From the IMG/VR virus record IMGVR_UViG_3300009128_000002: a stretch of DNA of 64,000 nucleotides; one strand, given 5' to 3'. Every line of letters starts with the position of its first letter. The first letter of the stretch is position 1. The position numbers and the translations under genes were made by a program. Below the pieces are notes generated by a model, which did not search any database, had not been told where the DNA came from, and saw only the letters and a program-made list of their open reading frames with translations. This DNA comes from a virus. Positions 9,466 to 61,250 of this stretch are shown here, piece by piece.

Positions 9466-10327
9466 TTGTGAAATGCATTAACATTTCAGAACCAGTATCA
9501 GATAAAGGATTTACAACAGTTGCATAACGGTTGATGATGCCTACTCTTTGTTGGAAAGACTCAACGTGGTTAGATGTTAAGATTTCAGTTTGGTAGTCAC
9601 CCATTACGATAGATGATGCACCAATTGTTTTCTTGTTATTTTCGATAAGACCAACATAAGCAACTGTAGCAGTAGCGTCTGGATTAACGAAGTATTTTGT
9701 TTTACCAATTTTAGAAACAGCAAGACGTTTTTCGTTTTCTTCTTCAGCACCACCTACGTATGTGTTTAGGGCAGTAACAGAAGCAGCCGCTTTATAAGGT
9801 AGAATAACAAATGCGTCAAATGTACGGTAGTTATCTGTGTTCATTTTAAGAACTAATTCTTGAACACGTTGAGTAATTTCAAATAAAGTTGATTCTGCAT
9901 TACCAGCATCTGATAAAGTTAATGTTGGTGTTGAAAGTGAATTAGCATTAAGGAATGTAATTAATGCATCATTTTCTTCTTTATCAACGATACCTTTTAA
10001 CATTGCACCTGCAATATCATAACCATCTTCGCCGTATTGGTTTTTAAGGTCTTGGACTGCTTCAATAGAAAGACCAGTTGATAATGGAGTTGCAGAATTA
10101 GAATTTACTGTTAAGGTTGCTTCTACTGTTTCGTAAGAACCAGTCGCACCATTTCTACGTAAGTTGATTACAGTACCAGTTGACATTTTCATAGGAACAA
10201 CGGCTGCGATGTTTCTTAAAATTGAAGTTGTAGGTAATTCATGGAAGGCATCAATCACTTTGTTAAAACTGAAATCTACTGTACTGATATCAGAATGGGT
10301 TGTTTTCTCATTAATTACTTGTGACAT
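9458..10327 (-). CDS. gp23/gp24-family capsid protein paralogue (vertex-like)
   Basis: VVPMKMSTGTVINLR and SIEAVQDLKNQYG resemble gp23 motifs (PM.GPTG.IFAMR; SIELAQDL.A.HG); C-terminal RY....NP. Confidence 0.7.
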   Translation of the reverse strand: MSQVINEKTTHSDISTVDFSFNKVIDAFHELPTTSILRNIAAVVPMKMSTGTVINLRRNGATGSYETVEATLTVNSNSATPLSTGLSIEAVQDLKNQYGEDGYDIAGAMLKGIVDKEENDALITFLNANSLSTPTLTLSDAGNAESTLFEITQRVQELVLKMNTDNYRTFDAFVILPYKAAASVTALNTYVGGAEEENEKRLAVSKIGKTKYFVNPDATATVAYVGLIENNKKTIGASSIVMGDYQTEILTSNHVESFQQRVGIINRYATVVNPLSDTGSEMLMHFTIS

Positions 10328-24222: not shown

Positions 24223-26082
24223 ATGGGCGTTCTAGACGGAATAATTGATAATGTAACCAATACAATAGGTGATGTTGTGGATGCAACATCGTCTGAAAAA
24301 AGTTTAACGCCTGGTTTCGATATAAACACACCAGATAGTGGTTATTTTACAGGCGTTGAAGATGCAATGACATCATTGGGAGGTGAATTAAAGTCACCTG
24401 CCTTCGCAAAAGTAGATGAAATGAAAAACGCATCAACTTCATTAAACGTTACAGATAACTTAGATAAATATACTTTAGAGCAAGCCTTTGGTCAATCTAA
24501 TGCTAATGATATGTGGGATACATTAACAGAAGTACAAAGTCTATCTGACGCTTTTGATGAGTGTGGTAATTATGCCCAAGATGCACTATCTTCTGCAACT
24601 ACTGATTATATTAAGAACACTGGTATCCAAGAAGCCGGTAGAGAGTTAGCCAAAAAGTTAGGTCAAGGTTCAGATATGGTTGATTGTGTATCTGGTTTTG
24701 CGACCTTATTCGATTCTGCAGGTGTTATGGACGATGCAATGGGATTGGGTGATTTACCACAAATACAATCTCGAATGCAAAGTGTTATACGTGATGCAAC
24801 AGATCCAAGTAAACTGTCTAATATGCTAATTAACTTAGATGTTGTTAGTGGGTTACTTGATGATTTTAATGGTATGTGTACGGGCATGAAAGATGCATTT
24901 AATAAATTAATACAATCAGATCTTTCTGCTATTAATGCATCGTTGAACAAATTAGCACAGTGGGCAGCCTTTGCAAAGATTGCCAATGCAGATCCTTGTG
25001 CTCTTGTAAATAATAATAAAATGCTTTCACATATATCTGCTCCAGTGATGGATGATATTGTTAAATTATTTAACAAAGCAACTGGTGGTAGTGCCGGACC
25101 AGAAGCCCCTATTATTCCTCTAGGTAATATTTTAGATGGATCTGCTTTACCATCATTACCAACTTTCAACCAAGCACCAGGCTTAGGTTTAGAATCATTC
25201 TCAACATATTTTTCAAGTATTTCAGCTGGGGCCGAAGATGTTGTTGAAGGTATTGCCCCTATGTTTAATTCTGCTGGTGTGTTTTTAGGTAATAGTTTAG
25301 GTGAAATGGGAGCGAGTGTATCATCACTACTAGAAAATAAAGGTGCAGTAGAATTTGATTCTATCTTAAAAGGTAGTAACTTAACAGAGGTTGTTGAAAC
25401 TACTTTAGATGATATGGCATTTGACGAACTTAATTTCGATATAGAAGAATTAACATCTAGTGCAAGTGAATTAACAGATATGGCATTTGACGAAATTGCT
25501 TTAGATACACCAACCATAATCGCAACAAAATCTAAAGTAGTTTCAACATTATCACCAAAAATGGCGGCCGCAGTATCAACATTAAGTAAACCATCATCAG
25601 GTTCGGGTGCCGATAGTGCAACTCCAATTCCTGCTCAACCAAAACCCCATTCAGTATCAAAATCTATTAATAGAAGTGTAGGTAAAGAAAGTGTATATGA
25701 GCCTAGTCCATTTACTGCCGCTTTAGAGGGGTTTAAACAGACTGCAGAAGATGTTGCAGATGAGTGGAGTGAGAAATTTGAAGGAATATCAGATTCATTA
25801 TTAGACAATTCCCCTTGGCCAACTGACATGAAAAGTAATTTCGATTCGCAAAATGTAAAGAAAGAAAAGACTAAAACTTGTAGTTGTGTGGGTGCTTCAG
25901 CCGCGGGTGGTTCTGGTACACCACAACAAGTATGTGCATCTAGAGGGGGTTCATGGAAATGTGTTAGTGTTAAAAAAGATAAAACAGTTAGTGGTAATAC
26001 ATATAACCATAAAAAGAACGTTGAGTTATCGACCACATTACCATCAAGTACACCATTTGATGTAAGTACCATAGGAGTGTAA
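24223..26082 (+). CDS. hypothetical acidic protein between gp5 and PAAR
   Basis: 619 aa, AGGAG SD, internal DMAFDE repeat, C-terminal Cys cluster. Confidence 0.8.
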   Translation: MGVLDGIIDNVTNTIGDVVDATSSEKSLTPGFDINTPDSGYFTGVEDAMTSLGGELKSPAFAKVDEMKNASTSLNVTDNLDKYTLEQAFGQSNANDMWDTLTEVQSLSDAFDECGNYAQDALSSATTDYIKNTGIQEAGRELAKKLGQGSDMVDCVSGFATLFDSAGVMDDAMGLGDLPQIQSRMQSVIRDATDPSKLSNMLINLDVVSGLLDDFNGMCTGMKDAFNKLIQSDLSAINASLNKLAQWAAFAKIANADPCALVNNNKMLSHISAPVMDDIVKLFNKATGGSAGPEAPIIPLGNILDGSALPSLPTFNQAPGLGLESFSTYFSSISAGAEDVVEGIAPMFNSAGVFLGNSLGEMGASVSSLLENKGAVEFDSILKGSNLTEVVETTLDDMAFDELNFDIEELTSSASELTDMAFDEIALDTPTIIATKSKVVSTLSPKMAAAVSTLSKPSSGSGADSATPIPAQPKPHSVSKSINRSVGKESVYEPSPFTAALEGFKQTAEDVADEWSEKFEGISDSLLDNSPWPTDMKSNFDSQNVKKEKTKTCSCVGASAAGGSGTPQQVCASRGGSWKCVSVKKDKTVSGNTYNHKKNVELSTTLPSSTPFDVSTIGV

Positions 26083-26825: not shown

Positions 26826-28577
26826 ATGAACGACACTAAACAATTAAATATTTCAGATTTAGAGTTTGATAAAATTAAAGGTAATATACGTGATTTCCTA
26901 AAGGGTCAGGACGACTTTACTGACTATGACTTTGAAGGTTCTGGTATGAGTGTTATGCTAGATGTTATGGCATACACAACTCATTATATGGGTTTCCATA
27001 CTAATATGGCAATCAATGAATCTTTCTTAGACACGGCAACACTGAGAAATTCAGTTGTTTCTCATGCGAAGGCATTAGGTTATGTACCCAAATCTGTTAC
27101 TGCCGCCGAAGCAATTATAAAACTAACATTTAACACAGATGGTTATAACCCATCGGTAATTACTATTGAAGCAGGTACTTCGTTTGTATCGACAATTAAT
27201 GGTAAGACACTAAATTTCATTAGTAAAGAAAATGTTAATGTTTTCCCTGATGAAGCTGGTGATTTTTATACAGAAATACGTGTTCATCAAGGTAAATTGA
27301 TGACTGTTGATTTTGGTACATATGGAGATAACACAACCAAACAATTTATTATTAAGGATAAAAGTTGCGATAGGGACACTATTACAATGGATGGTGGTTG
27401 GTATAATGACCAAAACTTGTCATCATTAACACCCACATCACAAACATTTTTTATACAAGAGGGTTTAGATGGTGTAACAGAGATTTATTTCGGTAATGGT
27501 ATTTTTGGTAAAATTCCAAATGATAGTGAAAATATTTCAGTTAAATACTTATCTACTGTTGGGTCCGAAGGTAACTATACATCATCGTTATACGATCAAG
27601 TATTTTCATTAGATACTACTATTGCAGGTGTGTATGATGAAAACAGGGTTATAATTGAAACTGTAAATATTTCATCTTTAGGTTCTAATGAAGAAAGTAC
27701 AGAAACTATTAAAATGACGGCTCCACGTGCATATGAAAGACAGGACAGAGCAGTAACAGCAGAAGATTATAAAACTATTCTTATTGAGAAATACCCTAAC
27801 ATTGATTCTATTTCAGTATGGGGTGGTGAAGATAACGATCCACCACAATATGGTGCTGTGTTTATTTCAATCAAACCAAAACACGGACTTGAGTTGTCCC
27901 CAATTACTAAAGATAAACTTACTAAAGATATTCTTTCTAAGTATAATATGTTGGCAATTAATCCAATTATTGTTGCACCTGAATACACATATTTAGATAT
28001 TGAAACTACAGTTAAATACAACCCATTAAATACATCTAAATCATCTGCATCTATTCAGAGTAAAATTATTGATGATATTAAATTATTTATTGAAAGTGAA
28101 ATATCACAATTTAAAGTTACATTACGTTATTCACAATTAATGAATACTATTGATTCTTCAGATCCATCTATTAGTAATAACCTTACAACTGTTAAGATGT
28201 ATAAGAAGTTTTATATTCAGGCATCTAATACGACAGGTAACTACATATTTAAGTTTAATAATTCTTTTAAGCCAGGTACTGCAGTATCCTCTGTATTTGG
28301 TAGTACATTAAATTCTACTCAATTTGCTTTACTTGATGATGGACAAGGTAATATATTACTTTATGATATTGTTTCTGAAAATTTCTTAAACACTACACAA
28401 GGTACTATTGATTATGATAAGGGTATTATTGAGTTAATTGGTTTTAATCCAACGGTTGATAATAATACAGTTATTAGTTTATATGGTACACCACAAAGTA
28501 ACGATATTATAGCACAACGTGATAACCTACTTGTACTAAATAATAGTAAAGTAACAATGGTTTCACTACAAGAATAA
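26826..28577 (+). CDS. gp6: baseplate wedge subunit gp6
   Basis: FTDYDFEGSG, NESFLDTATLRNSVVSHAK.LGY, Q.RAVTAEDY, VWGGED. Confidence 0.96.
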   Translation: MNDTKQLNISDLEFDKIKGNIRDFLKGQDDFTDYDFEGSGMSVMLDVMAYTTHYMGFHTNMAINESFLDTATLRNSVVSHAKALGYVPKSVTAAEAIIKLTFNTDGYNPSVITIEAGTSFVSTINGKTLNFISKENVNVFPDEAGDFYTEIRVHQGKLMTVDFGTYGDNTTKQFIIKDKSCDRDTITMDGGWYNDQNLSSLTPTSQTFFIQEGLDGVTEIYFGNGIFGKIPNDSENISVKYLSTVGSEGNYTSSLYDQVFSLDTTIAGVYDENRVIIETVNISSLGSNEESTETIKMTAPRAYERQDRAVTAEDYKTILIEKYPNIDSISVWGGEDNDPPQYGAVFISIKPKHGLELSPITKDKLTKDILSKYNMLAINPIIVAPEYTYLDIETTVKYNPLNTSKSSASIQSKIIDDIKLFIESEISQFKVTLRYSQLMNTIDSSDPSISNNLTTVKMYKKFYIQASNTTGNYIFKFNNSFKPGTAVSSVFGSTLNSTQFALLDDGQGNILLYDIVSENFLNTTQGTIDYDKGIIELIGFNPTVDNNTVISLYGTPQSNDIIAQRDNLLVLNNSKVTMVSLQE

Positions 28578-28592
28578 TTCTGGTAAAACAAT

Positions 28593-31500
28593 ATGTCAAA
28601 CGAAAAATTTTCACATAATCCAGCGAAGTTTTTATCAATTTTCGTTGACCGTATGGTGCCGGATTATGTCCGTGAAGACCACCCAATGTTTATCACATTC
28701 ATGCAAAAGTATTTTGAATACTTGGAGCGTGAAACAAGTGTAAATGGTGAATTAGGTGAATATACTCAAATAACAGACCTTATTGAAAATGTAGATATTG
28801 ACCATGCTTTGGATCAATTTATTCCAGAGTTTGAAAAACAATACTTATCAAGTACACCTACAACTGCTATTGACCCAACAGTTCCGACAACTGATAAAGC
28901 ATTTCTTACTAAAAATATTCAACCAACATATAGACAAAAGGGTACTGAGTCTGCATTAGACTTTATGTTTAGACGTGACTTTAATACAGAGGTTAAAGTC
29001 GCATATCCTAAAGAGTTTATGTGGAAGGCGTCTGGTTCAGATTGGTACGAACCACAATGGATAAATGTTGATGGTACTGCAACTAACACAAAGAAATTTT
29101 ATAATAAAAAGATCATAGGTCAAACATCAGGTGCAACAGCGTTTGTTGACATTGATGAAGGTATTTCTATTTCAGATTCCACAAAGTTACTATTAACAGA
29201 AGTTGATGGTTCTTTTATTCAAGGTGAAGAAATTCATGAAGATGTAGGTACATCTGGTAATGCACCAACTACTGCATTTATTACATCAGAAGGAATACGT
29301 TCTGATGGTGAGTGTTCTGTTAATGGTGGTAAATGGACAGATCAGTGGATTAATATTACTGGTCCACGACATGAAGTTAAACACGCAACAAATAATACTA
29401 TTGTTGGTGAAACTTCTGGTGCAACTGCCCACGTTGATGTGATGAATGTAAATTGGACTAGATTTAATATATCAGAAGTTCAAGGTGAATTTATTGAAGG
29501 TGAAAGAGTATATAATACATCTGCATTGAATTATAACCCCGACCCAGAAGGTAATCCATCATGGCTGCCAACTGAAAGTTTTTGTTCATCAAATAATGAG
29601 TGGCCATTAGGTACATTTCTAACTGAAAGAGAATGTACTAATGCCATGCATCCAGAAGCAGATGATCCAACTTCTGTTCATTATGGTGAATCGTCACATT
29701 TATTTTGGTTTCCTTTCCTTACTGTAACTAAAGGGGTACAAACTGTTGAAAATAGTTTTTTAGAAGTAGGAACAACACAACCAACTACACGTGAAGAATG
29801 TTTAAATTTATTAGATCAACCAAACGTAGACACTGCAGTTTGGGTGCCTAATGGTAGTTGGTTAGACTCTTCAGCGTTCTTATCTTCAGACCGTAAGTTA
29901 CAGGATAATGAATATTACCAAGATTATTCATATGTAATTAAGTCAGACGTTCCTATTCAATCTTACCGTGAAGTATTAAAGAAATTAGTTCACCCAGTAG
30001 GACTTAAATTATTTGCTGAATTTGCATTCCAATCGTCAGTAGATATGACGGTTGAAATTCCAACGGATTATGTTAAGTTACAAATTTTCTTATTCTCTTA
30101 TCTTGATGTTGCAATGGATATATGGGATAATGAATCGGAACAGCATGGTACACTTGGACACGCACATGAAGGATTTGGTGTTTATTTAGATAAAGGTTTT
30201 GAAGAATATGTAATCGAAATGATGTCTGCCTTAGAAGCCAGTGGACAATTAATTCCAGCAGAAGATTGGGATAAACCTTCAGATCACTTATCAGTAAACC
30301 TTGAGATTGATGGTGGTATTATTGGTACAACAGTTAGGGAGAAATTGTACACAGTTTCTTGGATGAATGATGATATCCAAAACCAATTGATTGCATTCCC
30401 AGAAACTACAATGCTCGAGTTTACTAAACAACTTAAAGTATTACCTATTGATGAATTCCCACCTGCAACACAGGAATTAGAGATTGTAGATAGTTTAGAT
30501 TCAACTACAGATGGTCGAATGATTAGTTGTGACCTTTGGGAACTTGGTGTATTTAAATCAATGCGTAAGGTATTGGAGTTTATTGACTCTTTCATGCCAG
30601 AGGCAGAATATGCACCTGAAAAATCATATGCTTATTTTGAAGCAAATAGAGAATCTGGAAGAATACAAAACATTTATGGTAAAACAAATGATGTAATTGA
30701 TTCAGTACATATTGGTGCATTTGATGAAGAAGTTGGTAATAGAATTCACTCACACGGTAGAGAAGATGGTTTCGCTCCGTTAGTAGAAACTGTAATTACA
30801 AAAGGTTTAGAACTACCTGTTATGGATGTTGGTGCATCTGCATTCCACGTACATTATTTTAATGGTGAAGAAATTAAAAACTTTACAAGACATGGAAAAC
30901 CAGTAACTGCTCGTGGTATGAACCACAACGAGGCAAGAAGACTAATTGACAGAGATTACTTTGAAATTCCTCATATGCACGGTGCTAACCTTGTATGTGG
31001 TGGTATTATGACTCCGCCTTTATGGGGTGACTGGGTAGATTCACAACAAGACCCACGTTATAATGGTATGGGAGAATGTTTTAATTCTCAATACGATAAT
31101 CCTACAGATTGTATTTCGTCATACGGTGGAAACCCTATGTTCTGGATGCCTCCTATGTGTTCTAATATGAGTAATATGGATCAATCTGTTTGTGAAGATA
31201 TGGGCGATACTTGGGTGGCAAATCCACCTTCTGCTTGTTCGGACGGAACATCACCTGACCATATGCAATGTGAGGCTGCTGGTGGAACTTGGACTTGGGA
31301 AACACCTAGTTATTGTACTTCATCTGAAGCGTCGTGTAATGCAGTTGGCCATTCATGGGGTTACTTCACATTAGAATCGTTACCTCCAATGAAAGGACAC
31401 GTTTCATATTTCGTTAAAGGTGAATTAGTAGACAGACAACGTGGACGATTTGCCGACCCACTTACACGTGAACAAGCAAGACAACTTATTGACGGTGATG

Positions 31501-34500
31501 TTGCTTCGGTTACTCTTTATGATAATGTTGGTTATTTAGACGATGAAGGTCACGTATTTACAGACGAACAAGATATTACTATTGGTGGTACTATTACTAA
31601 CATTCGTGGTGAAATTACAAGTGGTCACTATCACGAATATGAAGTAACTTACGACCCCGATTGGAAAGAACACACAGATTGGCAGAACAATCCACTAACA
31701 CACGGTTTTGTTTACACACCAATAACTACTTGGTTATGTTTTAACTATGACCCATCATTACCAGTAGATCCTACTGTTATGGGTGGTATGGATTTCTTAG
31801 GAAACCCTTGGCCACAGAACGTATTTATGGATGTGCCTGATTCTTATGTTGGTGGTTTCTTAATGAACCCAGATATTACATTACAACATAATCAAGTTTG
31901 GCCAGAGGTTTTAAATCCTAATGTGGACTTTGTTGAAATATATTCATCAAATCATATTGCTCAAGTGCCTGGAGTTGGTGCAACTGGTGATTTAATTGGT
32001 GTTGATTCTTTAGGTACTGATACTGATATTGTGGTTGTAGAAGCATTTCCTTCTTCAGTACAAACAGACACGGTTGCTATTGTTGACCAATCTGGTATCA
32101 TTAAGTTAATGAATGAGAATGATGGTACTAAGACTACCTTTATGGATCTTACTTCATTGCAACATACTATTGGTTTAGGTCCGTTTGCGAACTATGACGA
32201 ACGTGGTGTTCTTGGTTTATGTTTCCACCCTCAATTTGATACAAATGGTAAATTTTACGTTTATTACATGACTGAACAAGGTGGTGGTACAGGCGCTTGG
32301 GGCTTCCCATTATCGACTACTGTTATATCAGAGTTTGTTACTGATGCAGATAAACTTACTTGTACAGATTTATCTACTGAAAGAAACTTATTTACTATTC
32401 CACAACCAGACTTTAATCATAATGGTGGTGAACTAGTATTCGGACCAGACGGTATGTTGTATATCGGACTTGGTGATGGTGGTTCTGCAGGTGATACTTC
32501 TTCAATGGAAGGTCATGGTGGACACGGTGTTTATGGTAATGCACAAAACCCTACAAATTTATTAGGTACTATTTTAAGAGTAGATGTTACAGAAGATACT
32601 GTTAATAGTATGCCGTACACTATTCCTTCTGATAACCCATTTATCAATTCAATTTATAAAGAAGGTCAACCAGAAGCAACTTCATTTAGACCTGAAATTT
32701 ATGCTTATGGATTTAGAAATCCGTGGAGATTCTCATTTGCTCAAGATGGCAAGTTGTGGTGTGCTGATGTTGGACAAGACAAGTTTGAAGAAATCAACAT
32801 TGTAGAAGCAGGTGGAAACTACGGTTGGAGAGTAATGGAAGCATACCACGAGTATGAAGAAGACCAAACAATCATCGACCAAATTGCCATTGATTTAGGA
32901 CACACAAATACATTTGATTACTTAACAAGTTTAAAAGAACCTATTCACGAATATTCACACGGAACTGGTATATCTATATTGGGTGGATTTGTTTATAAAG
33001 GGTCTATTACAGAATTACAAGGTAAATACATATTTGGTGATTGGTCAACCACTTGGACAGGTACAAGTGGTCATTTATACACATTAAGTGAAAATTTTGA
33101 TGGGAACTCTGCCCACTTTAATGTTCTACCGAATGCAATAAATGGGTCAACACATAGTCATACGGTTGACTTGACAGGAGCACACGTACAGTTTCTTAAA
33201 GATAACCCAGGCAGTCCTGTTGTACAAATACAATCAGATACAGTTCATTCAGAATTCTACCTCCATACATTTACTATTATTTGGAGTTCTGAAAATCAAG
33301 AGTTTGTTTTAATTGGTCAAACTAATCCTGAAGGACATGATGTATTAGAATTTGTAGAGTATGGAACTGATTTAACATATGACAGAACACCACTATCTAT
33401 TTGGGATCCGACTACTGAAATTGTTGATTTAACAACAATGGGCGAGTCTATTCTTACTATGGGTGAGACTAATGATGGTGAAATTATATTTACTACTAGA
33501 ACTGGTATTGATACTTTCCAAGGTTCTGGTGTAGGTAATACATCAATGTATAAAATTACAGATTCTTATAATTCTGAAGATATACCTACTGCAAATAACC
33601 AGATACCTTCAACAGAAACTGCTCATATACACGGTTACGAAGTAACGTATGACGAGGAGAATTTATTCCAGGCAGTTGAAGTTTCAGATATTGAAATGCA
33701 AAACTATGATGCATTCTGGCCAATTTGGTCTTGGAATGATCCTGCATCACATATTCATCCAGTAAACAGTGCTTGGAGTGGTGAAACAGATACACAAACA
33801 TTACTTGGTTCTTCTGCAGGTTGGTATTATAATGAAGACGAAGAACAGTGGATGCCATATGATATTGGTGCAGATACGCCTTGGGCACCACCAGTAGAAG
33901 AGGATACTTCATATACGTACATTGAAACTGCTCCATCTGTTGCTATTTTAGGTGCTAACGAGTATGGTGAAAATACACATATACATTACTTCGACTCGTC
34001 TGTATTAGATACTTATGGTACAAACCAAGGACGTCTATCAACACCATTAACTAGATTGCAGGCAGAAGAACTTGCAAACGGTGTTGTTAATGAAGTTACT
34101 ATTTATTCATCAATTAGTGATAGTGGTTCGCATTTACATTACCACGAGTTTAAGGTTTTATGGAATCCTGCAACACAACAATTCCTTGCACAAGAGGTTG
34201 GTGAGTATAGGGATCTTATGGGGACTGGTGAATGGACTATAATTTTAGATGAACAAAAGAACCACGAACACACATTAACTGTAAATGGTATCACTACTAA
34301 CCTTGGTTGGAATGGTACTCCGTTATTTACAGCACCTGATGTTACACTAGGTCTTGCCCACGATTGGGATAACCTTGAAGGTAATAAACCAGATCATTTA
34401 CATTCATTTAACGGTACAGATCTAGATACTATTGGTGTTAATGCAGGACGTATTTCTGAAGCACTGACAGATGAGCAAACAACAGACTTAATTAATGGTG

Positions 34501-36164
34501 ATGTTGAATCGGTTATGTTATATTCTTCAATTGCGAACGGTGATCATTATCATGGTATTAGAGTTACATATGATGATGTTGGTTTAGCATTTATTGCCGA
34601 AGATGTTGAACAGTGGGTATCAGAAGATGGTGCTCAATTTCAATCATTAACACCTAGAACACACGCACATACTACAGAAATATCGAATCAATTATCTATT
34701 AATGGTTTTAACCAAGAACTGAATAGTAACGATTTACCTGTATTTGCTTCGCCTGGTTACCCATACCCTGGCGGTACACACCCTCATTTCCACAACGGAA
34801 CTGTTGTTGGACCATTCGCTTGGAATAATGAAATTGATTATGCCGACGGTTTAAGTGTTCAAAACGCAATGGACTTGATTAATGGTGTTGTAGAAGAAGT
34901 TATTATTTACGATTCTATTGAGGGTGCTCACTTCCACGACTATACAGTTAAGTATGATGATGTTGAAAATAAATTCTATTGTACTAATTCAATAACTTGG
35001 ATTCGTGGTGGTATTGAAGATATTACACAAGATCCATTAAAATATTACGTATCTGTTGTACTAAACGTATCAGAAGGACTTCATTGGCATAACTTGACTA
35101 TTGAATGGAATCCAAACGACGAAACATTGCCTCAACAAACTGGCGGTGCTGTTTATGTGACTAGAGTTGTAACGACTCCAGAAGTATTAACGTCAGACCC
35201 ACAAACGTCTATTGATACTAGTTCTACCGAGTTGAATCCAATCGTAGAGACTCTTACTGATACACCAAATGTAGGAGACACCACTGAAATTACTAAGTTC
35301 TTAGATAACGTAACTACAACAACTACTGTTACTACAACGGTTGTTACTACTGTTACTACTGAAACTTACTATTCAGATGGTACTATGGAAACTGTTGTTG
35401 GTAACCCACAGACTACTACTGAACAAGATACTTCTTCTACAACAGAACAAGTTGAAGATATGGCAGAACGTCAAACTAGAATTAATGGTATATTACAATC
35501 AAACAATGCCCCTATAATTTGGATTCAAGGAACGTTTATTGACGGTGAAGGTACACATGACCACTTATTATACACAGGTTGTACTTTGGATACGGTTGGT
35601 CCATTCTCAGGTAGAATGTGTGAACCTATTACTGTTGGACAGGCAAATGAGTTGATTAATGCACAAGATGTGAATTATGGAATTATTTTCTACGATTCAC
35701 CAAATGGTGCGGATAGTCACTATCACGGATATACAATTAAGTTTAATCCATACATAGGAACAGATGGTGAGTTTGTAGTTGAACCATTAAACCAATATGA
35801 CCAAATACCAGGCACAGGAACTACTATACATAAGTTCTTATTGACTGGTGGTTTCCATGACCATGACTATTGGTTGAGTGTTGCAGAATACACACAACTT
35901 GTTACTGGATCTAACATAACGACTCAACAAAGGGATACAATTCACGCACATTTATATACACACGACGTTACAATTGGTTATTCTGGTGGTCAATATAATT
36001 TATTAAATCAAACTAATAACCTTGATGGTCATAACTTGATTTCATATGTTGGTTCATTAGCTAGTGGTGGACAATGGTCAATTAGTACACAAGGTTCTGG
36101 TCTTGGTGACCATATTCATACAACTATTGTTGATGAAACAAACGTGTGGCCAACAAGTATTTAA
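28593..36164 (+). CDS. gp7: giant gp7-like baseplate wedge protein with inserted glucose/sorbosone dehydrogenase-family propeller, His-pair modules and Cys repeats
   Basis: N-terminal gp7 motifs (P.YVRED.P.F..F...YF, KGT, LQD..YYQDYSYVIKS, HPVG); lies between gp6 and gp8; ERG.LG..FHP.F, NHNGG.L.FGPDG.LYIG.GDGG, G.RNPWR, GGNYGW. Confidence 0.88.
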   Translation: MSNEKFSHNPAKFLSIFVDRMVPDYVREDHPMFITFMQKYFEYLERETSVNGELGEYTQITDLIENVDIDHALDQFIPEFEKQYLSSTPTTAIDPTVPTTDKAFLTKNIQPTYRQKGTESALDFMFRRDFNTEVKVAYPKEFMWKASGSDWYEPQWINVDGTATNTKKFYNKKIIGQTSGATAFVDIDEGISISDSTKLLLTEVDGSFIQGEEIHEDVGTSGNAPTTAFITSEGIRSDGECSVNGGKWTDQWINITGPRHEVKHATNNTIVGETSGATAHVDVMNVNWTRFNISEVQGEFIEGERVYNTSALNYNPDPEGNPSWLPTESFCSSNNEWPLGTFLTERECTNAMHPEADDPTSVHYGESSHLFWFPFLTVTKGVQTVENSFLEVGTTQPTTREECLNLLDQPNVDTAVWVPNGSWLDSSAFLSSDRKLQDNEYYQDYSYVIKSDVPIQSYREVLKKLVHPVGLKLFAEFAFQSSVDMTVEIPTDYVKLQIFLFSYLDVAMDIWDNESEQHGTLGHAHEGFGVYLDKGFEEYVIEMMSALEASGQLIPAEDWDKPSDHLSVNLEIDGGIIGTTVREKLYTVSWMNDDIQNQLIAFPETTMLEFTKQLKVLPIDEFPPATQELEIVDSLDSTTDGRMISCDLWELGVFKSMRKVLEFIDSFMPEAEYAPEKSYAYFEANRESGRIQNIYGKTNDVIDSVHIGAFDEEVGNRIHSHGREDGFAPLVETVITKGLELPVMDVGASAFHVHYFNGEEIKNFTRHGKPVTARGMNHNEARRLIDRDYFEIPHMHGANLVCGGIMTPPLWGDWVDSQQDPRYNGMGECFNSQYDNPTDCISSYGGNPMFWMPPMCSNMSNMDQSVCEDMGDTWVANPPSACSDGTSPDHMQCEAAGGTWTWETPSYCTSSEASCNAVGHSWGYFTLESLPPMKGHVSYFVKGELVDRQRGRFADPLTREQARQLIDGDVASVTLYDNVGYLDDEGHVFTDEQDITIGGTITNIRGEITSGHYHEYEVTYDPDWKEHTDWQNNPLTHGFVYTPITTWLCFNYDPSLPVDPTVMGGMDFLGNPWPQNVFMDVPDSYVGGFLMNPDITLQHNQVWPEVLNPNVDFVEIYSSNHIAQVPGVGATGDLIGVDSLGTDTDIVVVEAFPSSVQTDTVAIVDQSGIIKLMNENDGTKTTFMDLTSLQHTIGLGPFANYDERGVLGLCFHPQFDTNGKFYVYYMTEQGGGTGAWGFPLSTTVISEFVTDADKLTCTDLSTERNLFTIPQPDFNHNGGELVFGPDGMLYIGLGDGGSAGDTSSMEGHGGHGVYGNAQNPTNLLGTILRVDVTEDTVNSMPYTIPSDNPFINSIYKEGQPEATSFRPEIYAYGFRNPWRFSFAQDGKLWCADVGQDKFEEINIVEAGGNYGWRVMEAYHEYEEDQTIIDQIAIDLGHTNTFDYLTSLKEPIHEYSHGTGISILGGFVYKGSITELQGKYIFGDWSTTWTGTSGHLYTLSENFDGNSAHFNVLPNAINGSTHSHTVDLTGAHVQFLKDNPGSPVVQIQSDTVHSEFYLHTFTIIWSSENQEFVLIGQTNPEGHDVLEFVEYGTDLTYDRTPLSIWDPTTEIVDLTTMGESILTMGETNDGEIIFTTRTGIDTFQGSGVGNTSMYKITDSYNSEDIPTANNQIPSTETAHIHGYEVTYDEENLFQAVEVSDIEMQNYDAFWPIWSWNDPASHIHPVNSAWSGETDTQTLLGSSAGWYYNEDEEQWMPYDIGADTPWAPPVEEDTSYTYIETAPSVAILGANEYGENTHIHYFDSSVLDTYGTNQGRLSTPLTRLQAEELANGVVNEVTIYSSISDSGSHLHYHEFKVLWNPATQQFLAQEVGEYRDLMGTGEWTIILDEQKNHEHTLTVNGITTNLGWNGTPLFTAPDVTLGLAHDWDNLEGNKPDHLHSFNGTDLDTIGVNAGRISEALTDEQTTDLINGDVESVMLYSSIANGDHYHGIRVTYDDVGLAFIAEDVEQWVSEDGAQFQSLTPRTHAHTTEISNQLSINGFNQELNSNDLPVFASPGYPYPGGTHPHFHNGTVVGPFAWNNEIDYADGLSVQNAMDLINGVVEEVIIYDSIEGAHFHDYTVKYDDVENKFYCTNSITWIRGGIEDITQDPLKYYVSVVLNVSEGLHWHNLTIEWNPNDETLPQQTGGAVYVTRVVTTPEVLTSDPQTSIDTSSTELNPIVETLTDTPNVGDTTEITKFLDNVTTTTTVTTTVVTTVTTETYYSDGTMETVVGNPQTTTEQDTSSTTEQVEDMAERQTRINGILQSNNAPIIWIQGTFIDGEGTHDHLLYTGCTLDTVGPFSGRMCEPITVGQANELINAQDVNYGIIFYDSPNGADSHYHGYTIKFNPYIGTDGEFVVEPLNQYDQIPGTGTTIHKFLLTGGFHDHDYWLSVAEYTQLVTGSNITTQQRDTIHAHLYTHDVTIGYSGGQYNLLNQTNNLDGHNLISYVGSLASGGQWSISTQGSGLGDHIHTTIVDETNVWPTSI

Positions 36165-36256: not shown

Positions 36257-37252
36257 ATGGGTGCTATTGTAACCAGTAAATTCAGAACACAAAACTTGAT
36301 GGTGTTCATTGACCAGTTCAAAACTACTGGTAATGTAGCCACAGATAATTACTTATACCTTGGATTTGGACGTTCAAATGCTTGGGCAGATGATGCTCAA
36401 GGTAATGACGAATCTTCAGGTCAATTCACACTACCCGATCCATTAGATGAAGATGAACATCAGTATTGGTTGGATATTGTTGGTGCAAAGCGTATTCAGA
36501 ATGATGATATTTCGCCTGTACTTCCACGTGTAGACTGGAGTGTTGGCGATACACTTGCGTTTGATGGTGATGTTGCCAATGGTATTACTGGTATTGATGA
36601 GCCTGGTCGTTCTTTCGTATCAAAAACAGGTTCACACTCAACAGTAATGAATTCAAATTACCTTATTTACCAATGTGTTGGTGAGCCTTCTACTGGTAAA
36701 TGTTATATTGGTGGTGTTTATGATAGTGGTACTGCATCTTCTCGTGCTGTTTGTGAAGCAACTACTGGTGGTCTTTGGTTACCTACTGGTGCTTCTGAGG
36801 AACCTACTGGACATAACAATGGTGCAGATATTTCAACTTCAGATGGTTACGTTTGGAAATATCTATACACTTTAGAATTAAATGACATTATTAACTCAAC
36901 TACAAATGACTGGATGCCAGTTATTACAGGTAGTGCAGTGTTACCAGATTCAGACCAATCATTATACGGTGATGTTGATGCAATCTTTACTGCTAAATGC
37001 CACCACGGTCTAATTCACGTTAGATTGGAAACTTCAGATGGTTTCCCAGAAAACGATGACTTCCGTCAAATTGGTTTATTACGTAATCCAGAACTGACAG
37101 GTGGTGGTACACGTGCTCAAGGTTCAGTATATGCAAATGCAGATACCCAAATGGAGACAGACTCAGGTCAGTTAATTTACCTTGAAAATAGACGTGCTAT
37201 TACACGTGCCGCTGACCAGATTGAAGATTTGAAACTTGTAGTTGAATTCTAA
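36257..37252 (+). CDS. gp8: baseplate wedge subunit gp8
   Basis: AIVT.KFR, Y.G.GR...W, DGYVWKYLY, DFRQIGL..NP, SG..IY.ENR..I.RA.DQ.ED.K.V.EF. Confidence 0.92.
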   Translation: MGAIVTSKFRTQNLMVFIDQFKTTGNVATDNYLYLGFGRSNAWADDAQGNDESSGQFTLPDPLDEDEHQYWLDIVGAKRIQNDDISPVLPRVDWSVGDTLAFDGDVANGITGIDEPGRSFVSKTGSHSTVMNSNYLIYQCVGEPSTGKCYIGGVYDSGTASSRAVCEATTGGLWLPTGASEEPTGHNNGADISTSDGYVWKYLYTLELNDIINSTTNDWMPVITGSAVLPDSDQSLYGDVDAIFTAKCHHGLIHVRLETSDGFPENDDFRQIGLLRNPELTGGGTRAQGSVYANADTQMETDSGQLIYLENRRAITRAADQIEDLKLVVEF

Positions 37253-46100: not shown

Positions 46101-49100
46101 AGAGTATGAAGTGGTTGCCGATTTGGCATCTTACAGATTCCAAGTTGACCGTGATATTACTAATCATATTGGTTCGCCTTATGTTGAAGGTATAGAAATT
46201 CTTTGGAGTCGTCCTAATACAGTTAAATCAAACAATCATGGTTTATCTGTTGGTGATATTGTACAGTTGCCTTCTGGTGAACAACCATATACACCATCTG
46301 AATTGCCTGGTGCTATGAACGACCATACGGTTGTTGCTTTAGGTGATGGTTATGGTCCGACAGATAATATGGAAATTACAGTAGATACTAACACTACTGT
46401 AACTTGGAACGACCCTACACTTACAACAGTTGAAGGTGCTCAAGACTCGCCTTGGTTATGGTCTTGGTGGGATCATACTGCAGATTCTTACTTCCCTTAT
46501 CAAAGAGCAGGTGCCACTTATGACAACTTCGGTGGTAATGATGGTATTAACGGTGGTTTTGAATTATTCCGTGGTGGTACATATAAGTTTACTAATAATG
46601 CTTGGAATCCATCTGGTCATATTACATTAAACGACCCAGTAACTGGTAACCCAACACCTATGTATATGCACGCCGCTGGTGTTAAAGCAATGCTTGGTGC
46701 TGGGTGGGATAACCTTGTTCAAGCAGGTATGGTACAAAACGATGGAAACAATTGTGTTTCTATGAGAGCAAATCACGGTCTAACAATTACTGCTGGTGAC
46801 CATAATGACTTCGTTAATACTGAAGAAGAGCCAGGAACGTGGGTAGGTTCAGAACCATTCCCTGTTTGTATGGGACTAGGTGGTTGGTGTGAAGAATTAG
46901 ACGTTGATGGTTGGTATTATAATGGTGAAGACGTTAAATCTAACTGTGAAGCACTTAACCCTACTAATGACCCAGGCTTAGCACAATGGAGAGAATCACA
47001 ATTTATTGGTAACTTCTCAAAAGAATTTACTTGGACTATTCCTGAAGATTTCGGTTTGACAGGTTCAGATGGTGCAACTGGATTAGGTCCTTTTGTACCA
47101 CCTGGCGAGGTTAATGGTGCTTACCATATGACACATGATGGTGGTTTATACCGTTTTGATAAATCTGGTATGATTGAAGGTACTAACAGAACGATTAATT
47201 TATATCGTGGTGGTACATACACGTTTAAGATTAACTCTGCTGGACACCCACTTTACGTTACAACAGATGACGGTTCGCATTTCACGCCAGGTGCATACTT
47301 TGGTGAATACTTATTAGGTGTTCAAAACTCACGTGCAGAAGAAGGTGCTGGTGTTCAGACTGAAGGAACTGATATGTGGGGTAATGACGATTCTGGTGTT
47401 CCAAAATACGAAGAGTTAGTATGGACTGTTCCAGAAGTTGCGCCAGATACTATGTACTATCAGTGTGCATGGCACGCTTCAATGATGGGACAATTCAATA
47501 TCCTTGATATGCCTGTTATTAACGCTGGTGATGATATTGTTGTTTACTTCCATCACGGTCAAGACAATATGTACACTCCATTACATATTAAGGATAAGAT
47601 TGTTGTTGATAATGGTACATCTACAGATTACTTCCAAGTACAACCTGCCCCAGAAAATGCGTTCCCAGTAAAAGGAACTCAAGCAGATATTTTAGGTACT
47701 AATAATGCACTTACTGCTACTGGTCCTGGCGCTGTACCAGAAATACAGGCAATGAATATTGAATTAGGTACTGTATCTTATATCGACCCTCTTGCGATGG
47801 TGCCAGGTATTGGTTCTGAGCAATTCCTTGTTACTAATGATATTGGTGGACTTGCTAAAGTTTACTTCAGTGTAGATATTGATCAACGTTCTGATATTAT
47901 TTTAGACAATGTAACATTTAAAGAAGTTGTATGGACTGAAACAGGTTCTTGGCAGATTCAAGGTGGTTCTGCATTTACTAATACTACAGATGCCGCTTAT
48001 ATTGAGCAGATTGTGACTGGTTCTATTTCCGAAGGTGTTACATACGAAGTTAAATACGATATTATTGAATCATTTAAAGACCAATATGGTGCTGAAATTG
48101 GTTCTATTACTGCAGAATTGCGTGGTGACACGATAGTTCAAGGTATTTCTAACACTTTAGTTGGTCATTATTCTGAAACTCTAGTTGCTCCTGCAAATAC
48201 TACTATTCTTAGATTAGTTAATAGTGGTAAAGGTAAGATTGATAACATTTCTATTAAAGAACGTGTTACTGGTCAGAATGCTTGGTCTATGGGTGAAGGT
48301 TGGACATCTGATGGTGCAAAAGCATATTTAGATGGTTCTATTGCTTCTTCTACTGAAGTTTCTCAAACAGTTTCTATTGATACTGGTAAACTATACGAAG
48401 TTAAATACTCACTTGCAGATGTAGATAACGATAATAATGGTATGACTGGACGTATGAGAGTAACATTGGGTACTAACCCAAATCAGTTAATTTCTAATTG
48501 GAACTTCGATATTACAGATACTGATTTAGTTAATTGGACTAATTCAAGTGATACTGTTCAAATTATCGATGGACAACTGATATTTAACTCTGCTTCTAAT
48601 GATACTTCTACTTACACACTATCTAACGCATTAGTTGGTGGTGTTAAATATGAATTAACTATTGATTGTGATTTAATTGAAGATAATATCCTTAACTTCC
48701 AAGTTGGACCTGGCCCTACTGGTACACATCCACACACTTTCCAAATGACTGAGTCGCAGGGTCAATGGTTACAAGAAAGCACAAATAACAGTTTAACATT
48801 CGAGCAAACCGATGGTTATCATGCAGAAACATATACACACGAATTTACAATTAAGTGGTTAAATGTTGGTGGTATTAATCAATATACGATAACAGAACAA
48901 TCAAATCCTGAAGGACACGATGAATTAACGTTGGTTTCTACTACTATTAATACACCTAGTATTGATTTTGTAATCAACGGAAACACAATGGGTACTATTA
49001 ATAAGTCTGGTATTCGCCATATTAACTTTATTGGTGAAATTACTACAGATTTAGTATTAAATATGAACGATTCTGGTGCTATTAATAGTGTTAAATTGGT

Positions 49101-51260: not shown

Positions 51261-54200
51261 ATGTCTGTAACACTATCAACCATATCAACGCAAGTTGACC
51301 AATTTAACGATATTCCAGATATCACCTTTACTGGTATTGATATTACAGAGTTCGTTGAAGAAGTAGAAATTTATACTAACACCCCTGCAGTGATGATTCC
51401 AACTAAGTTGAACGCTATGGCGGGCAACATGAAGGCTTGGTTAAATTCAAATGTAACTACCCCATTAGAAAACCAACAAAATACGTTTAAAGATGAAGTT
51501 GTCGTAAGAACAAATACTGCTATGAATGCTGTAGAAACTTACATGAACGATGAAGTTGCTGGTTTTATTAATACTGTATTTGTTCCTTGGGCAAACGATG
51601 CCGGTACTACATTATCAACTGCTTCTAACTTATTAGAAACAAATGTAACTACTCAAATGACGCAGTTACAATCAGACTATACTATCCACGTACAGAATCA
51701 AGATGCAATTATCCAACAGGCAATTGATGATATGATTCTTCAACTTTCACAGTACACTTCTGGTGCTGCCGATTCAGGTTACTCTATCCATCAAACGAAT
51801 TTATTGATGTCAGATCTAACAATGACACGTGAGATTGGGTTTGCAGACTACAAATATACTAAAGATGGTCAAATCGCATTTGCAGAAGAAGGTGCTAATA
51901 AAACCCATCACATTGCTTACGATAAGTCAGGTAATATTATATCTTTTGGTGAGTCTATGCAAATTGACGGTGAACCACGTCCATTTGTTCAGCATCTTAA
52001 ATTGGATAAAGAATTAGGAACTGGTTCTACTTCAGTTGAAAAGGTTAAGGCATATAGTATATTTAAATCAGTTTCAGAGACTGGTATTGAATCTTTTAGA
52101 GCTACTGCTCATGAGACAGACGGTGCGCCAGGTGTTGATCTAACTATTTTGAATAATACATCAATTGCAGATACAGATAACCCAGAATTAATTATTCGTC
52201 GTGGTAACTCTAATGCATTATTATTTGATGGTATTGACGCTGGTGATATGGTTAAAGTTTCTAACCTAGATGGTACTATTTACAACGATGGTATTTCTGG
52301 TCAATATGCAGAGGATTATGAAACAGTTATGTTTACACCACATTCTTCTTACTGTCATGATGGTCTTTCTTCTGTGACAGGTTGGGGTGTTGTTGTATCA
52401 GACGGTGCATCTGGTATCGATTCAGACGGTAGTGATTTTGATGATCCAACCAAATGTGAGAACTATTCAAATGCATCTGTATCATTATTAGACGACTTCA
52501 GTAGAACTTACGAGTATGATATTGTTGGCGAGTCTTATGATACAGACCTTTCTGATGGTCTTACATATAAAGTTTCTATTACAGATGATTCTGGTGTTGT
52601 TGATACTTACGGTTATACTATTGACGCAAATAAAACATTAGGTACTGGTGCAATTTTAAATGCAGTTTATGACGATGGTGTTTCTGATGTAAATATTACT
52701 AATGGTGGTTCTAAATATTCAGAAAACACATTCGCTAGAGCATTTGATTTGGGTGCTGTTGACGTTACAGGTTCTACAGAAACTAAAGCAGAAGCGACAT
52801 TCACGTTAAGAAATGGAATGGTTGATTCTATTAAGGTAGTTGGTGGTGGTGCTGGGTATCAGGGTTTCTGGAACGTTGTTGTACCAGACGGTGGTAACGG
52901 ACACACACATAACTTACAACTTTCACAAGCAGAAATTAATACTATTAAGTCTGGTACTACAGTAGTTTCTACTACAGTAGAGGGTGGTCATTCACACGAT
53001 ATTACAATTTCATGGAATTCATTTACTGAGAATTTTGTATTTGATTCACAAGTTGGTGCCCATGATCACGGTAGTGTTGCAGATTCATATCAAATTAACC
53101 CTTCTATTACAGTTGATTTCAGTGCTGGTCTTGGTGGTAACGCAGTTGCTCATGTATTACTTACAGAAACTAATGAATTAGATAAAGTTGTTGTTACAAA
53201 CGGTGGTTCTGGTTATTTAGTAACAGATATAGTTTCTATTACTGGTGGTAACGAAACTACTTCTGGTGCAATTCAAGTATCATATGCAGACGGTGGTATT
53301 GATTCTATTTCATTAACTAATCAAGGTACTGGTTATACAGATACAACACCTAAGACAGTTTCAGTTGCTATTCAAAATAATGCATTTCAACCTTCAATTA
53401 TTTCTGCTAACGTTGGTGATACTGTTGAATTTACTAACTTAGATATAGGTGCTCATACAGTTACTAATGAAGATGGTGCATTTGATTCTGGTGATATTCC
53501 ACAGAATGCTGTGTTTAGTTACACTATTGTAGATGACACAGAATTAACAAAAGAATATAAAATTACAGATACACAGACTGGTGGTGGTGCAACTCTATGG
53601 GTTCGTGAAAATACAGTATTTGTAGATATGGTAACTTCTACTGGTGGTGGTATGCGTGGTATTGCTACGGTAAATGCTTCTGGTAATATTATTGACATCG
53701 CAGTTGACCGTCCAGGCAAAGGGTATGTTGCCACTGACACAGTTAAACCAATCGACGTTTCTGGTCCTGGCGAGGGTGCATATGCAGATGTAGTAACAAA
53801 CCGTTCTATTGATACAATTACAGTTGACAGTATTGGTTCTGGCTATTCATTAGATACAGAAATTATTATTTTCGACCCAACTGGAACACCAATTTACGAT
53901 GATTTGGGTGTTGAGATTGATCGTGTATATGGTTCTGGTGCGAGTGCAACAGCAACTATTTCTTTAGTTACAATTCCTGCCTTCTGTTCTGATGCATTGG
54001 TTACTGACGAACCTACTTGTACAACGACTGGTAATACTTGGACTGCTGAAGTACCACAAGGTGCTATTACAGAAGTTTCTGTAAACCGTGCAGGTAGTGA
54101 CTATGTAGATATAGAACTTATTATCAATGACCCTCAAGGAACTGGTTCTGGTGCTATATTAAGTACAGGAATCAACAATGTGGTTAGTGATATTAACTTT

Positions 54201-60102: not shown

Positions 60103-60118
60103 ATAATTTCACAAAAGG

Positions 60119-60147
60119 TTGACTTTTACATAAAAATAGGGTATAAT
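60119..60147 (+). promoter_or_regulatory. sigma70-type early promoter, preceded by a late TATAAATA at 60098-60105
   Basis: TTGACT-N17-TATAAT. Confidence 0.8.
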
Positions 60148-60187
60148 AACTCTATTATGATTATATTATTAACAAGTGAGGTGAAAA

Positions 60188-61249
60188 ATGAGCAATCGCT
60201 CTAAAGCGTTTTTTATAAACGGTGGTGCAGGACGTGTTCTGTGTTCAATTCCAGCATTGAATAAATATGCAGAAGAATCTGGTGATGATGATTTTATTAT
60301 TGTTTGTGAAGCAGGTATGGACTTCTATAGGGGACATCCAAATCTACACAAACGTGCTTATGAATCATGGCATAAAGGTTTATTTGAAAACCACCTTAAA
60401 GATAAAGATATAGTATCACCTGAACCATATAGGGTTAATGAATATTTCAATCAGAAGTGCAATTTAGCACAAGCGTTTGATATAATAATTAATGAGTTAG
60501 TCGAACCAAGGGTTTTACCAGATCCAATTATAAAACTAAATAAAAATGAATTAATTCAAGGTCACCAAACAATACAAGAGATGAAGTCATCTATTGGGAA
60601 AAATAAGGTAGTAGTAGTTCAACCATTTGGACGTTCTATTTCAAAAATGGGTGATTTTTTAGTAGACCAATCCAGCCGCTCTTTTGAATTACAAAATATT
60701 ATTAACATTATTGAGAAACTAAGAAAAGAGTATTTAGTTATTGTAATGAGCGAATACCCAATAACAGTATCTACAGATGAGAAAAATATGGTAGCATTCC
60801 CACAAATACCTGATATTAGATTATGGGCATCCATTATTAATTCTGCAGACCATTTCTTAGGGTGCGACTCTGTAGGTCAACATATCGCAAAATCTCTAGG
60901 TAAAACTGCAACGGTAGTAACAGGGTCTACATTCCCAGAAAATATTAGTTACCCAAACTTTGATGGGTTTGATATTGTAGATATTGGTAAAGATAAAAGG
61001 GTTTATTCCCCTATTAGAGTTTCTATAGATGATGAACGTGATCGTGGAAATGATGAAGTAATGATGATGGACGAAGAACAAGAGCAACTTGTAGTTGATT
61101 CTGTAGTTTCGTTTCTAGGTAAAGGTGAAAGGTTTGAAGGTTCTTTTACACCAACAGAAGAGTGTGGTGGTAGTTGTGGGTCTATTCCTGCAGGTAGTAA
61201 TACACCAGAATATAAATTTAATACAAAGAACCTTTTAGGAGAATTATAA
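60188..61249 (+). CDS. GT9/heptosyltransferase-like glycosyltransferase
   Basis: GGAG....SIPA; V.VQPFG; I..AD.FLGCDS.GQHIA..LGK...V..GST. Confidence 0.7.
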   Translation: MSNRSKAFFINGGAGRVLCSIPALNKYAEESGDDDFIIVCEAGMDFYRGHPNLHKRAYESWHKGLFENHLKDKDIVSPEPYRVNEYFNQKCNLAQAFDIIINELVEPRVLPDPIIKLNKNELIQGHQTIQEMKSSIGKNKVVVVQPFGRSISKMGDFLVDQSSRSFELQNIINIIEKLRKEYLVIVMSEYPITVSTDEKNMVAFPQIPDIRLWASIINSADHFLGCDSVGQHIAKSLGKTATVVTGSTFPENISYPNFDGFDIVDIGKDKRVYSPIRVSIDDERDRGNDEVMMMDEEQEQLVVDSVVSFLGKGERFEGSFTPTEECGGSCGSIPAGSNTPEYKFNTKNLLGEL

Positions 61250-61250
61250 T

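Follow-up and report, generated by a model that had tools for sequence, protein, structure and literature searches.

A GSDH-family propeller of the HHIP-like branch in the giant gp7-like baseplate protein of an uncultured marine T4-like phage lineage

Background

Phage tail proteins borrow cellular lectin and hydrolase domains, and some of the borrowed domains are propellers. The K1F endosialidase carries a six-bladed sialidase propeller, and Gp45 of the staphylococcal phage phi11 carries a five-bladed propeller; in both cases, a tail or baseplate protein presents a propeller of cellular type to host glycans. In this report, we describe a cellular-type propeller of a different superfamily, located in a gp7-like baseplate wedge protein of 2,523 amino acids (aa). 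The protein is encoded in a 64,000-nucleotide (nt) window, by which we mean the whole stretch of DNA analyzed, from the IMG/VR virus record IMGVR_UViG_3300009128_000002. All nucleotide positions refer to this window. A first-pass annotation had proposed that a glucose/sorbosone dehydrogenase (GSDH)-family propeller was inserted here into gp7.

T4 gp7 and the giant gp7-like proteins of marine phages share with this protein both the position between gp6 and gp8 and the conserved N-terminal core. Other marine gp7 homologues are likewise giant and modular (1,400-4,250 aa).

The soluble pyrroloquinoline quinone (PQQ) enzymes compared in this report are A. calcoaceticus sGDH (1C9U), E. coli YliI/Asd (2G8S), P. 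aerophilum Asd (3A9G) and S. coelicolor Adh (3DAS). In sGDH, His144 is the catalytic residue, and an Arg-Asn pair among the PQQ ligands is kept even in the fungal AA12 enzyme, in which the counterparts are His363, Arg430 and Asn431 (PMC6881789). The AA12 enzyme CcPDH, composed of a PQQ propeller, a cytochrome and a CBM1 domain, is a further parallel, in that it is modular and extracellular and joins a six-bladed PQQ-type propeller to a separate electron-acceptor domain and binding modules; it is PQQ-dependent although bacterial PQQ ligands are missing (PMC4133262, PMC6881789). HHIP binds heparin on its propeller surface and Hedgehog through a blade-3 loop (PMC8660895). Prokaryotic HHIP-like proteins, as well as HHIP, HHIPL1 and HHIPL2, are secreted cellular proteins, whereas the phage domain is embedded in a baseplate protein and carries phage-specific insertions.

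Results and discussion

A complete propeller of the HHIP-like branch

The protein, the propeller and its active-site positions are located as follows.

28593..36164, + strand: gp7-like giant baseplate wedge open reading frame (ORF), 2,523 aa; one open frame, collinear with 16 full-length metagenomic homologues
31992..33563, + strand: six-bladed GSDH/HHIP-like beta-propeller, including a nested module, about aa 1134-1657; Pfam GSDH, profile and structural matches
32418..32420, + strand: codon of His1276 (NHNGG), equivalent of the sGDH/YliI general-base His; aligns with the His of YliI NHFGG
32715..32720, + strand: codons of Arg1375-Asn1376 (GFRNPW), equivalent of the PQQ-contacting Arg-Asn; align with YliI IRNPQG

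The first-pass annotation had placed a six-bladed GSDH-family propeller at 32070-33570, and our analysis bears this out with slightly different borders. Pfam GSDH (PF07995) matches aa 1166-1482 at 113.3 bits against a cut-off of 25 (E 1.9e-32), and the motifs quoted in that annotation, including DVGQ...EEIN, GGNYGW, GG.VY.G and GKYIFGDW, all occur in frame within aa 1202-1484. Alignments cover model residues 7-537 on either side of an internal insertion, so that the propeller has its full set of six blades and forms a closed ring.

The earlier family assignment, to PQQ sugar dehydrogenases or HHIP-like proteins, stands at the level of GSDH and can be narrowed to the second of these. The top structural match of the propeller is to the HHIP structures 7pgm and 7pgn. 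When the profile of our alignment A2 was compared with PDB sequences, HHIP chains were found with an E-value of 1.5e-78, and proven PQQ enzymes with values of 2e-32 to 8e-26. The nearest cellular relatives are 43-47% identical over the propeller and, where named, are "PQQ-dependent sugar dehydrogenases" of Thermoplasmatota, Bacteroidota and others; vertebrate HHIPL1 and HHIPL2 are 39-42% identical to it. The sGDH-type model TIGR03606 of NCBIfam gives 83.1 bits, far below its cut-off of 434.55, although this is a narrow model, since YliI itself reaches only 109.6 bits. Taken together, these sequence comparisons place the propeller in the HHIP-like branch of the GSDH family, not in the sGDH/YliI branch. 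We found no biochemically characterized enzyme of the HHIP-like branch in the PDB sequence set or in the literature searched.

In comparison with cellular relatives, the phage propeller has specific insertions: a blade-2 loop, an HGGHG loop, a helical hairpin between blades 4 and 5, and a module with five His residues nested in blade 6. Some relatives have additional insertions, such as a piece of about 133 aa in the blade-3 region, where HHIP has its Hedgehog-binding loop, or an extra Cys-containing piece of about 87 aa just after the nested His module, that is, an insert beside an insert. Examples occur in L009 and L010 (about 9700-10100) and in proteins P0140, P0141 and P0144 (about aa 1500-1590). 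A paper on a Deinococcus SOD-propeller was set aside, as it concerns the SGL lactonase family.

Active-site positions and retained invariants

To compare active sites, we aligned the phage domain to E. coli YliI from the MG1655 record. The His of HNGG and the Arg of RNP, previously matched to active-site positions of the family, do align with those positions. The general-base equivalent, His1276, is invariant in 32 viral sequences and present in about 99% of cellular relatives, and Arg1375-Asn1376 is invariant in all 76 rows of alignment A2.

The C-terminal Arg pair that contacts the PQQ carboxylates in soluble PQQ enzymes is missing from the phage domain, as the first-pass annotation had also remarked: YliI RIRDV aligns with SILTM in the phage and with (R)(I/V)LSF in cellular HHIP-like relatives, most of which also lack the pair. 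By motif alignment, this pair probably corresponds to Arg406/Arg408 of sGDH, and Lys377 was mapped likewise. The missing pair is compatible with PQQ use, because several bacterial PQQ ligands are absent from the AA12 enzyme CcSDH, as they are from HHIP, and CcSDH is nonetheless PQQ-dependent (PMC4133262).

Beyond these positions, the window phage keeps 108 of the 128 columns of A2 that are at least 85% conserved in cellular relatives. A second set comprises 85 hidden Markov model (HMM) match columns that are at least 85% conserved over 217 cellular sequences. The numbers of these columns that are retained show that the phage domain keeps the invariants of the HHIP-like branch, unlike YliI.

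Window phage: 75 of 85
32 viral sequences: 72-77
Cellular sequences: mean 81.8
Vertebrate HHIPL1/2: 77-79
YliI: 36

In the aligned part of the window's domain, all but 2 of 37 conserved polar positions are kept; three more conserved polar columns, in the last blade, fell outside the extracted domain. Human HHIP, the sole member known to work by binding alone, presents the opposite case: His-Asp replaces Arg-Asn, and both the flanking Asn of NHNGG and the GGAGD motif are lost. The phage domain, in contrast, keeps Arg-Asn and a GDGG(S/G)AGD motif. It is therefore not a decayed pseudo-enzyme. However, retention of the invariants is not proof of turnover, because the same set persists in HHIPL proteins, for which no catalysis is known.

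The propeller lies in a lineage-specific extension of gp7

Three further features establish the setting of the propeller.

28593..30092, + strand: conserved gp7 core, aa 1-500; phrog_17744, PF23786 and tblastn matches to annotated gp7 genes
26826..28577, + strand: gp6-like baseplate wedge gene, directly upstream of the gp7-like ORF; phrog_219 baseplate wedge subunit, E 1.7e-156
36257..37252, + strand: gp8 baseplate wedge gene, directly downstream of the gp7-like ORF; Pfam PF09215 Phage-Gp8, E 4.8e-34, and phrog_977

A clear gp7 N-terminus between gp6 and gp8 had been noted previously, and family searches agree. Residues 12-232 match phrog_17744, "baseplate wedge subunit" (E 1.4e-52), residues 424-476 match Pfam PF23786 Baseplate_wedge (40.2 bits; cut-off 27), and tblastn matches of the core are to genes annotated as gp7 or baseplate wedge in Caulobacter Cr30, Sinorhizobium phiM12 and Synechococcus S-RIM8. 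On the basis of these N-terminal matches, we assign the ORF as the gp7-position wedge protein. A phmmer search of PDB sequences with aa 1-620 gave no gp7 match, and so no direct sequence match to the solved T4 gp7.

The gene order is that of a T4-type baseplate module. On the + strand, genes for a gp48-like tail-tube cap, a gp53-like protein, a tail protein, the gp5 hub/lysozyme, a 619-aa ORF, PAAR, gp25-like and gp6-like proteins, the gp7-position ORF and gp8 follow one another, which includes the series gp25-gp6-gp7-gp8. Three giant ORFs of 1,798, 2,654 and 1,190 aa lie 3' of gp8. No gp9-gp12 genes are recognizable in the baseplate module of these phages.

The claim that the propeller was inserted into gp7 requires refinement. 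The propeller is indeed inside the gp7 ORF, but within a lineage-specific extension of about 2,000 aa that follows the conserved core, with His modules on its flanks, and no gp7 homology is detectable downstream of it. Pfam searches with gp7 aa 480-1130, 1480-1620 and 1660-2523 yielded nothing significant, including no YHYH match, and an ESM Atlas feature search with aa 1785-2010 returned no usable match. Across the 16 collinear full-length homologues, no part of the extension is better conserved than the propeller, whose mean identity of 0.67 is similar to that of the N-terminal core and exceeds the 0.51-0.61 of its flanks.

The gp6-like protein is only about 35% identical to the nearest gp6 of cultured phages (Pelagibacter, Methylophilales and Synechococcus myoviruses), and megablast of the gp7-like gene gave no matches among 50,697 deposited phage records. 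Therefore, we attribute the window to a deep, uncultured marine T4-like lineage.

A five-His module nested in blade 6

A His module within the propeller, at about 33140-33360, was part of the first-pass annotation, and we recover it as the core of a somewhat larger insertion. It and similar modules are located as follows.

33129..33443, + strand: nested insertion of about 105 aa in blade 6, about aa 1513-1617, with a five-His core at aa 1516-1592 (module 33138-33368); defined by alignment with relatives
35844..36062, + strand: second short five-His module, at the gp7 C-terminus, aa 2418-2490; BLASTP to the nested copy, 37 bits, E 5e-7
48724..48936, + strand: paralogue in the 2,654-aa protein, aa 1850-1920; BLASTP 54 bits, E 5e-13
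52878-53117, + strand: weaker paralogue in the 1,190-aa protein; BLASTP 36 bits, E 1.6e-6
33972..35750, + strand: long-form His modules, gp7 aa 1794-1866, 1934-2002, 2061-2130 and 2320-2386; iterated HMM, domain E 2e-21 to 6e-28
31398-31670, + strand: further long-form His module, gp7 aa 936-1026; iterated HMM

The nested insertion is the largest of the propeller's insertions, and it is found in all viral relatives but in neither cellular homologues nor YliI. Its five His residues are invariant over 28 aligned module copies, and the module presumably binds metal. As a control for the paralogues, the best of 50 shuffled sequences reached 28.5 bits. A five-His module of about 70 aa is thus common to three virion proteins, and five or more copies of the long form lie elsewhere in gp7. 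When 1.84 billion representatives were searched with a profile of the five-His module, just 19 proteins were recovered; the module is therefore close to lineage-specific. Pfam searches with eight of these 19 proteins were uninformative.

In the gp7-like giants of other marine phages (P0286-P0348; 2,900-4,250 aa), PF14240 "YHYH" domains occur in place of the propeller. The His modules described here may be distantly related to PF14240, even though Pfam detected none.

Distribution and origin

The architecture recurs in many metagenomes. In 13 IMG/VR contigs, the region is found at 66-78% identity, with the GSDH motif within a giant frame of 1,489-3,088 aa (some truncated by the end of the contig); in contigs with flanking sequence, this frame is preceded by a gp6-like ORF of about 590 aa and followed by an ORF of about 1,800 aa. 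Six more IMG/VR contigs have the domain in frames of 1,846-2,450 aa, of which five exceed 2,400 aa and one is cut at a contig end. Within a collection of 5.8 billion proteins, the propeller has matches of 54-81% identity in 25 clusters of long proteins; 19 are listed with both PF23786 and PF07995, and the other six are shorter proteins with PF07995 alone. A search with the gp7 N-terminus added eight clusters. In all, 19 IMG/VR contigs and 33 protein clusters (at 90% identity) have the architecture. These derive from ENA, JGI, Logan, NCBI and Tara assemblies, on contigs of up to 152,906 bp. One propeller-bearing sequence is from a Tara mesopelagic sample.

The N-terminus search also separates gp7 homologues with and without the propeller. 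All 29 PF07995-bearing matches are 53-75% identical in the aligned N-terminal segments and score 153 bits or more, and every homologue with at least 53% N-terminal identity has the propeller. The remaining listed matches score 131 bits or less, at 37% identity or below; none has PF07995, and many have PF14240 YHYH domains.

Using tblastn with the propeller, we found no GSDH-type baseplate propeller among the deposited phage records; the sole matches are in four "Acinetobacter phage MD-2021a" contigs, whose yliI-like genes are 25-27% identical and have no baseplate link. These records (CAKLQH020000008.1, CAKLQF020000012.1 and two more; 44-156 kb) are apparently bacterial contigs filed as phage. 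In BFVD, the sole GSDH-like viral models are in deep-sea giant-virus bins (Pithovirus LCPAC and Marseillevirus LCMAC), with 14-25% identity (entries A0A481Z5E4, A0A481Z663, A0A481Z6G2 and A0A481YUV5).

In propeller trees made with FastTree and IQ-TREE, the viral sequences (32 and 11 rows, respectively) form one clade with support of 100, on a stem of 0.61-0.67 substitutions per site. Monophyly on a long stem argues for one old capture and not a chimera. The phylogeny proposed for finding the donor did not yield one, as no close cellular sister of the viral clade is supported. P0116 was a candidate sister in FastTree (support 83, with a long-branch warning), but IQ-TREE did not reproduce this position. 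Proteins with Thermoplasmatota names are among the best BLAST matches, which in itself does not mark that group as the donor.

Possible roles of the propeller

Our preferred, although tentative, reading, to which we would assign somewhat less than an even chance, is that the propeller is a sugar- or ligand-binding head that acts at the host surface through its conserved pocket. The propeller is a complete domain that an ancestor of this widespread lineage captured once from a cellular HHIP-like gene of the "PQQ-dependent sugar dehydrogenase" type, and that has been inherited vertically since, fixed in the long C-terminal extension of the wedge protein. In T4, one gp7 is present per wedge and six wedges form the baseplate; by analogy, six propeller copies might be positioned at the baseplate periphery. 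A small ligand of the host envelope, such as a carbohydrate, would be held in the conserved top-face pocket, and this grip could help to anchor or orient the baseplate before contraction. Binding would be the selected function, with turnover absent or incidental, and the His modules, both the nested five-His one and those around it, might serve as metal-stabilized spacer or adhesion units. Consistent with binding, the invariants taken to form the pocket are retained, HHIP gives precedents for ligand binding by this fold, and HHIPL1/2 retain their invariants without known catalysis. In addition, the relatives in cells are multidomain proteins that act outside the cell and include lectin, CBM, FN3 and T9SS-sorting domains.

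Several observations count against a binding head. Receptor-binding tips are usually hypervariable among related phages, and this propeller is as conserved as the structural core; such conservation fits an invariant ligand, catalysis or internal docking equally. Also, nothing would oblige a pure lectin to retain the general-base His or the Arg-Asn pair, the second of which has disappeared from HHIP, but both persist in all 32 viral sequences. Finally, the phage lineage has no cultured member, and the HHIP-like branch offers no established biochemical function in any organism.

The retained residues lead to a second reading, in which the propeller is a catalytically competent, carbohydrate-oxidizing virion enzyme. 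It would use PQQ and Ca as sGDH and YliI do, or a chemistry of the HHIP branch, and its electrons might pass to type-1-copper cupredoxin-like domains of neighboring fibers, so that a host-envelope sugar is modified, or sensed through turnover. We consider this unlikely on balance. The minimal triad of all known six-bladed PQQ enzymes, the general-base His plus Arg-Asn, is kept in all 32 viral sequences despite only about 45% identity to cellular relatives, whereas the non-enzyme HHIP lost Arg-Asn and other invariants. Moreover, among 95 long cellular relatives, 23 have cupredoxin domains (PF00127/PF13473) as fusion partners and one has a multicopper oxidase, which indicates that the HHIP-like branch is wired to copper redox partners in cells. 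The window contains a possible counterpart, which is in a virion protein other than gp7.

47155..47517, + strand: cupredoxin-like domain in the 2,654-aa virion protein, with a His/Cys/His/Met set (GHP ... YYQCAWHASMM)

The ligand set His...Cys-x2-His-x2-3-Met occurs in canonical order and is conserved in 23 of 24 close relatives; the remaining one has Asp for the second His, and distant relatives do not have the set. A phmmer search of PDB sequences with this segment gave nothing meaningful. In a set of 248 proteins, a profile built from the phage cupredoxin-like domain picks up, at 33.9 bits, the N-terminal domain of P0186, a GSDH fusion protein from cells. P0186 is a protein of 1,198 aa with CHRD, Big_7 and GSDH domains, and its residues 37-143, which have no Pfam annotation, are of the same type as the phage domain (RGQTYTF..HPF ... 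APDTLFYICSIH). In the phages, this cupredoxin is found on six long viral contigs, every one of which encodes the gp7 propeller as well, but this co-occurrence stems from one lineage. No pqq genes (pqqC-type PF03070 or PqqD PF05402) were found in five partial genomes of the lineage, which, being fragments, do not establish that the genes are absent. A complex prediction for the propeller and the cupredoxin-like domain scored 0.00 against a mark of 0.32, a result that says nothing for or against binding. Because the cellular cupredoxin fusions and the P0186 profile match parallel the phage pair, a quinoprotein-cupredoxin pair on the virion is conceivable.

A bolder version, which we regard as improbable, is that the baseplate is a working metallo-redox device, with a cofactor-loaded propeller (PQQ/Ca or similar), type-1 copper cupredoxins in adjacent fibers and five-His metal modules alongside. 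If true, host recognition or triggering would proceed through oxidation of a host-surface sugar, and a redox enzyme system would then have been described in a virion for the first time.

Alternatively, the propeller could be an internal docking hub, a rigid platform for the 1,798-, 2,654- and 1,190-aa fibers or for neighboring wedges, with no contact to the host. T4 gp7 is itself the organizer of the wedge, and the domain, together with the whole architecture of 2.5 kaa, is collinear and evenly conserved over the lineage, which is what a structural part would be expected to show. Beta-propellers often serve as platforms for protein-protein contacts, and HHIP binds its protein ligand through a loop (PMC8660895). 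We nevertheless think a docking hub doubtful, since it gives no reason for keeping the polar invariants of the cellular branch, and the loops and insertions peculiar to the lineage point to a propeller surface that is exposed and able to evolve.

An assembly chimera at the domain borders, or a mis-joined cellular gene, which the first-pass annotation had named as what would overturn its proposal, is for practical purposes refuted: the same ORF architecture recurs in the contigs and clusters from five assembly sources, GC content is unbroken at the borders (0.34-0.40 over 31500-34000), the viral clade is far from any cellular sequence, and we found no point in support.

Broader implications

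What is new here is a quinoprotein-type propeller with intact polar invariants in a phage, absent from the 50,697 phage records and from the phage entries of BFVD, and fixed throughout an uncultured and apparently abundant marine T4-like lineage. Propeller and nested orphan module together are a variation on the theme of modular phage receptor-binding proteins, and could provide a handle on host recognition in phages that do not have T4-type gp9-gp12. The locus is also a natural case of one domain (five-His) nested in another (propeller) in a structural protein. With the neighboring cupredoxin-like domains, it provides a testable hypothesis of virion-borne redox chemistry. Moreover, a phage member under strong purifying selection is a simple system for asking what the HHIP-like pocket binds, including that of vertebrate HHIPL1 and HHIPL2.

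Other features of the window

A Cys-rich insert at gp7 aa 800-940 or so (30990-31412) is the sole large window-specific piece and the sole strongly variable part of gp7. Most of the 16 homologues in the alignment do not have it (aa 801-900 show a gap fraction of 0.75-0.88), and it resembles the C-x-D...C...W repeats in the 2,654-aa fiber.

The 619-aa ORF between gp5 and the PAAR gene (24223-26082) matches no PHROG or Pfam family, and the window contains no tRNAs. After the fiber cluster, at 58513-63032, are genes for a tryptophan halogenase-like protein (phrog_2928) and a Nol-type carbamoyltransferase (phrog_1601), as in marine cyanomyoviruses and pelagimyoviruses.

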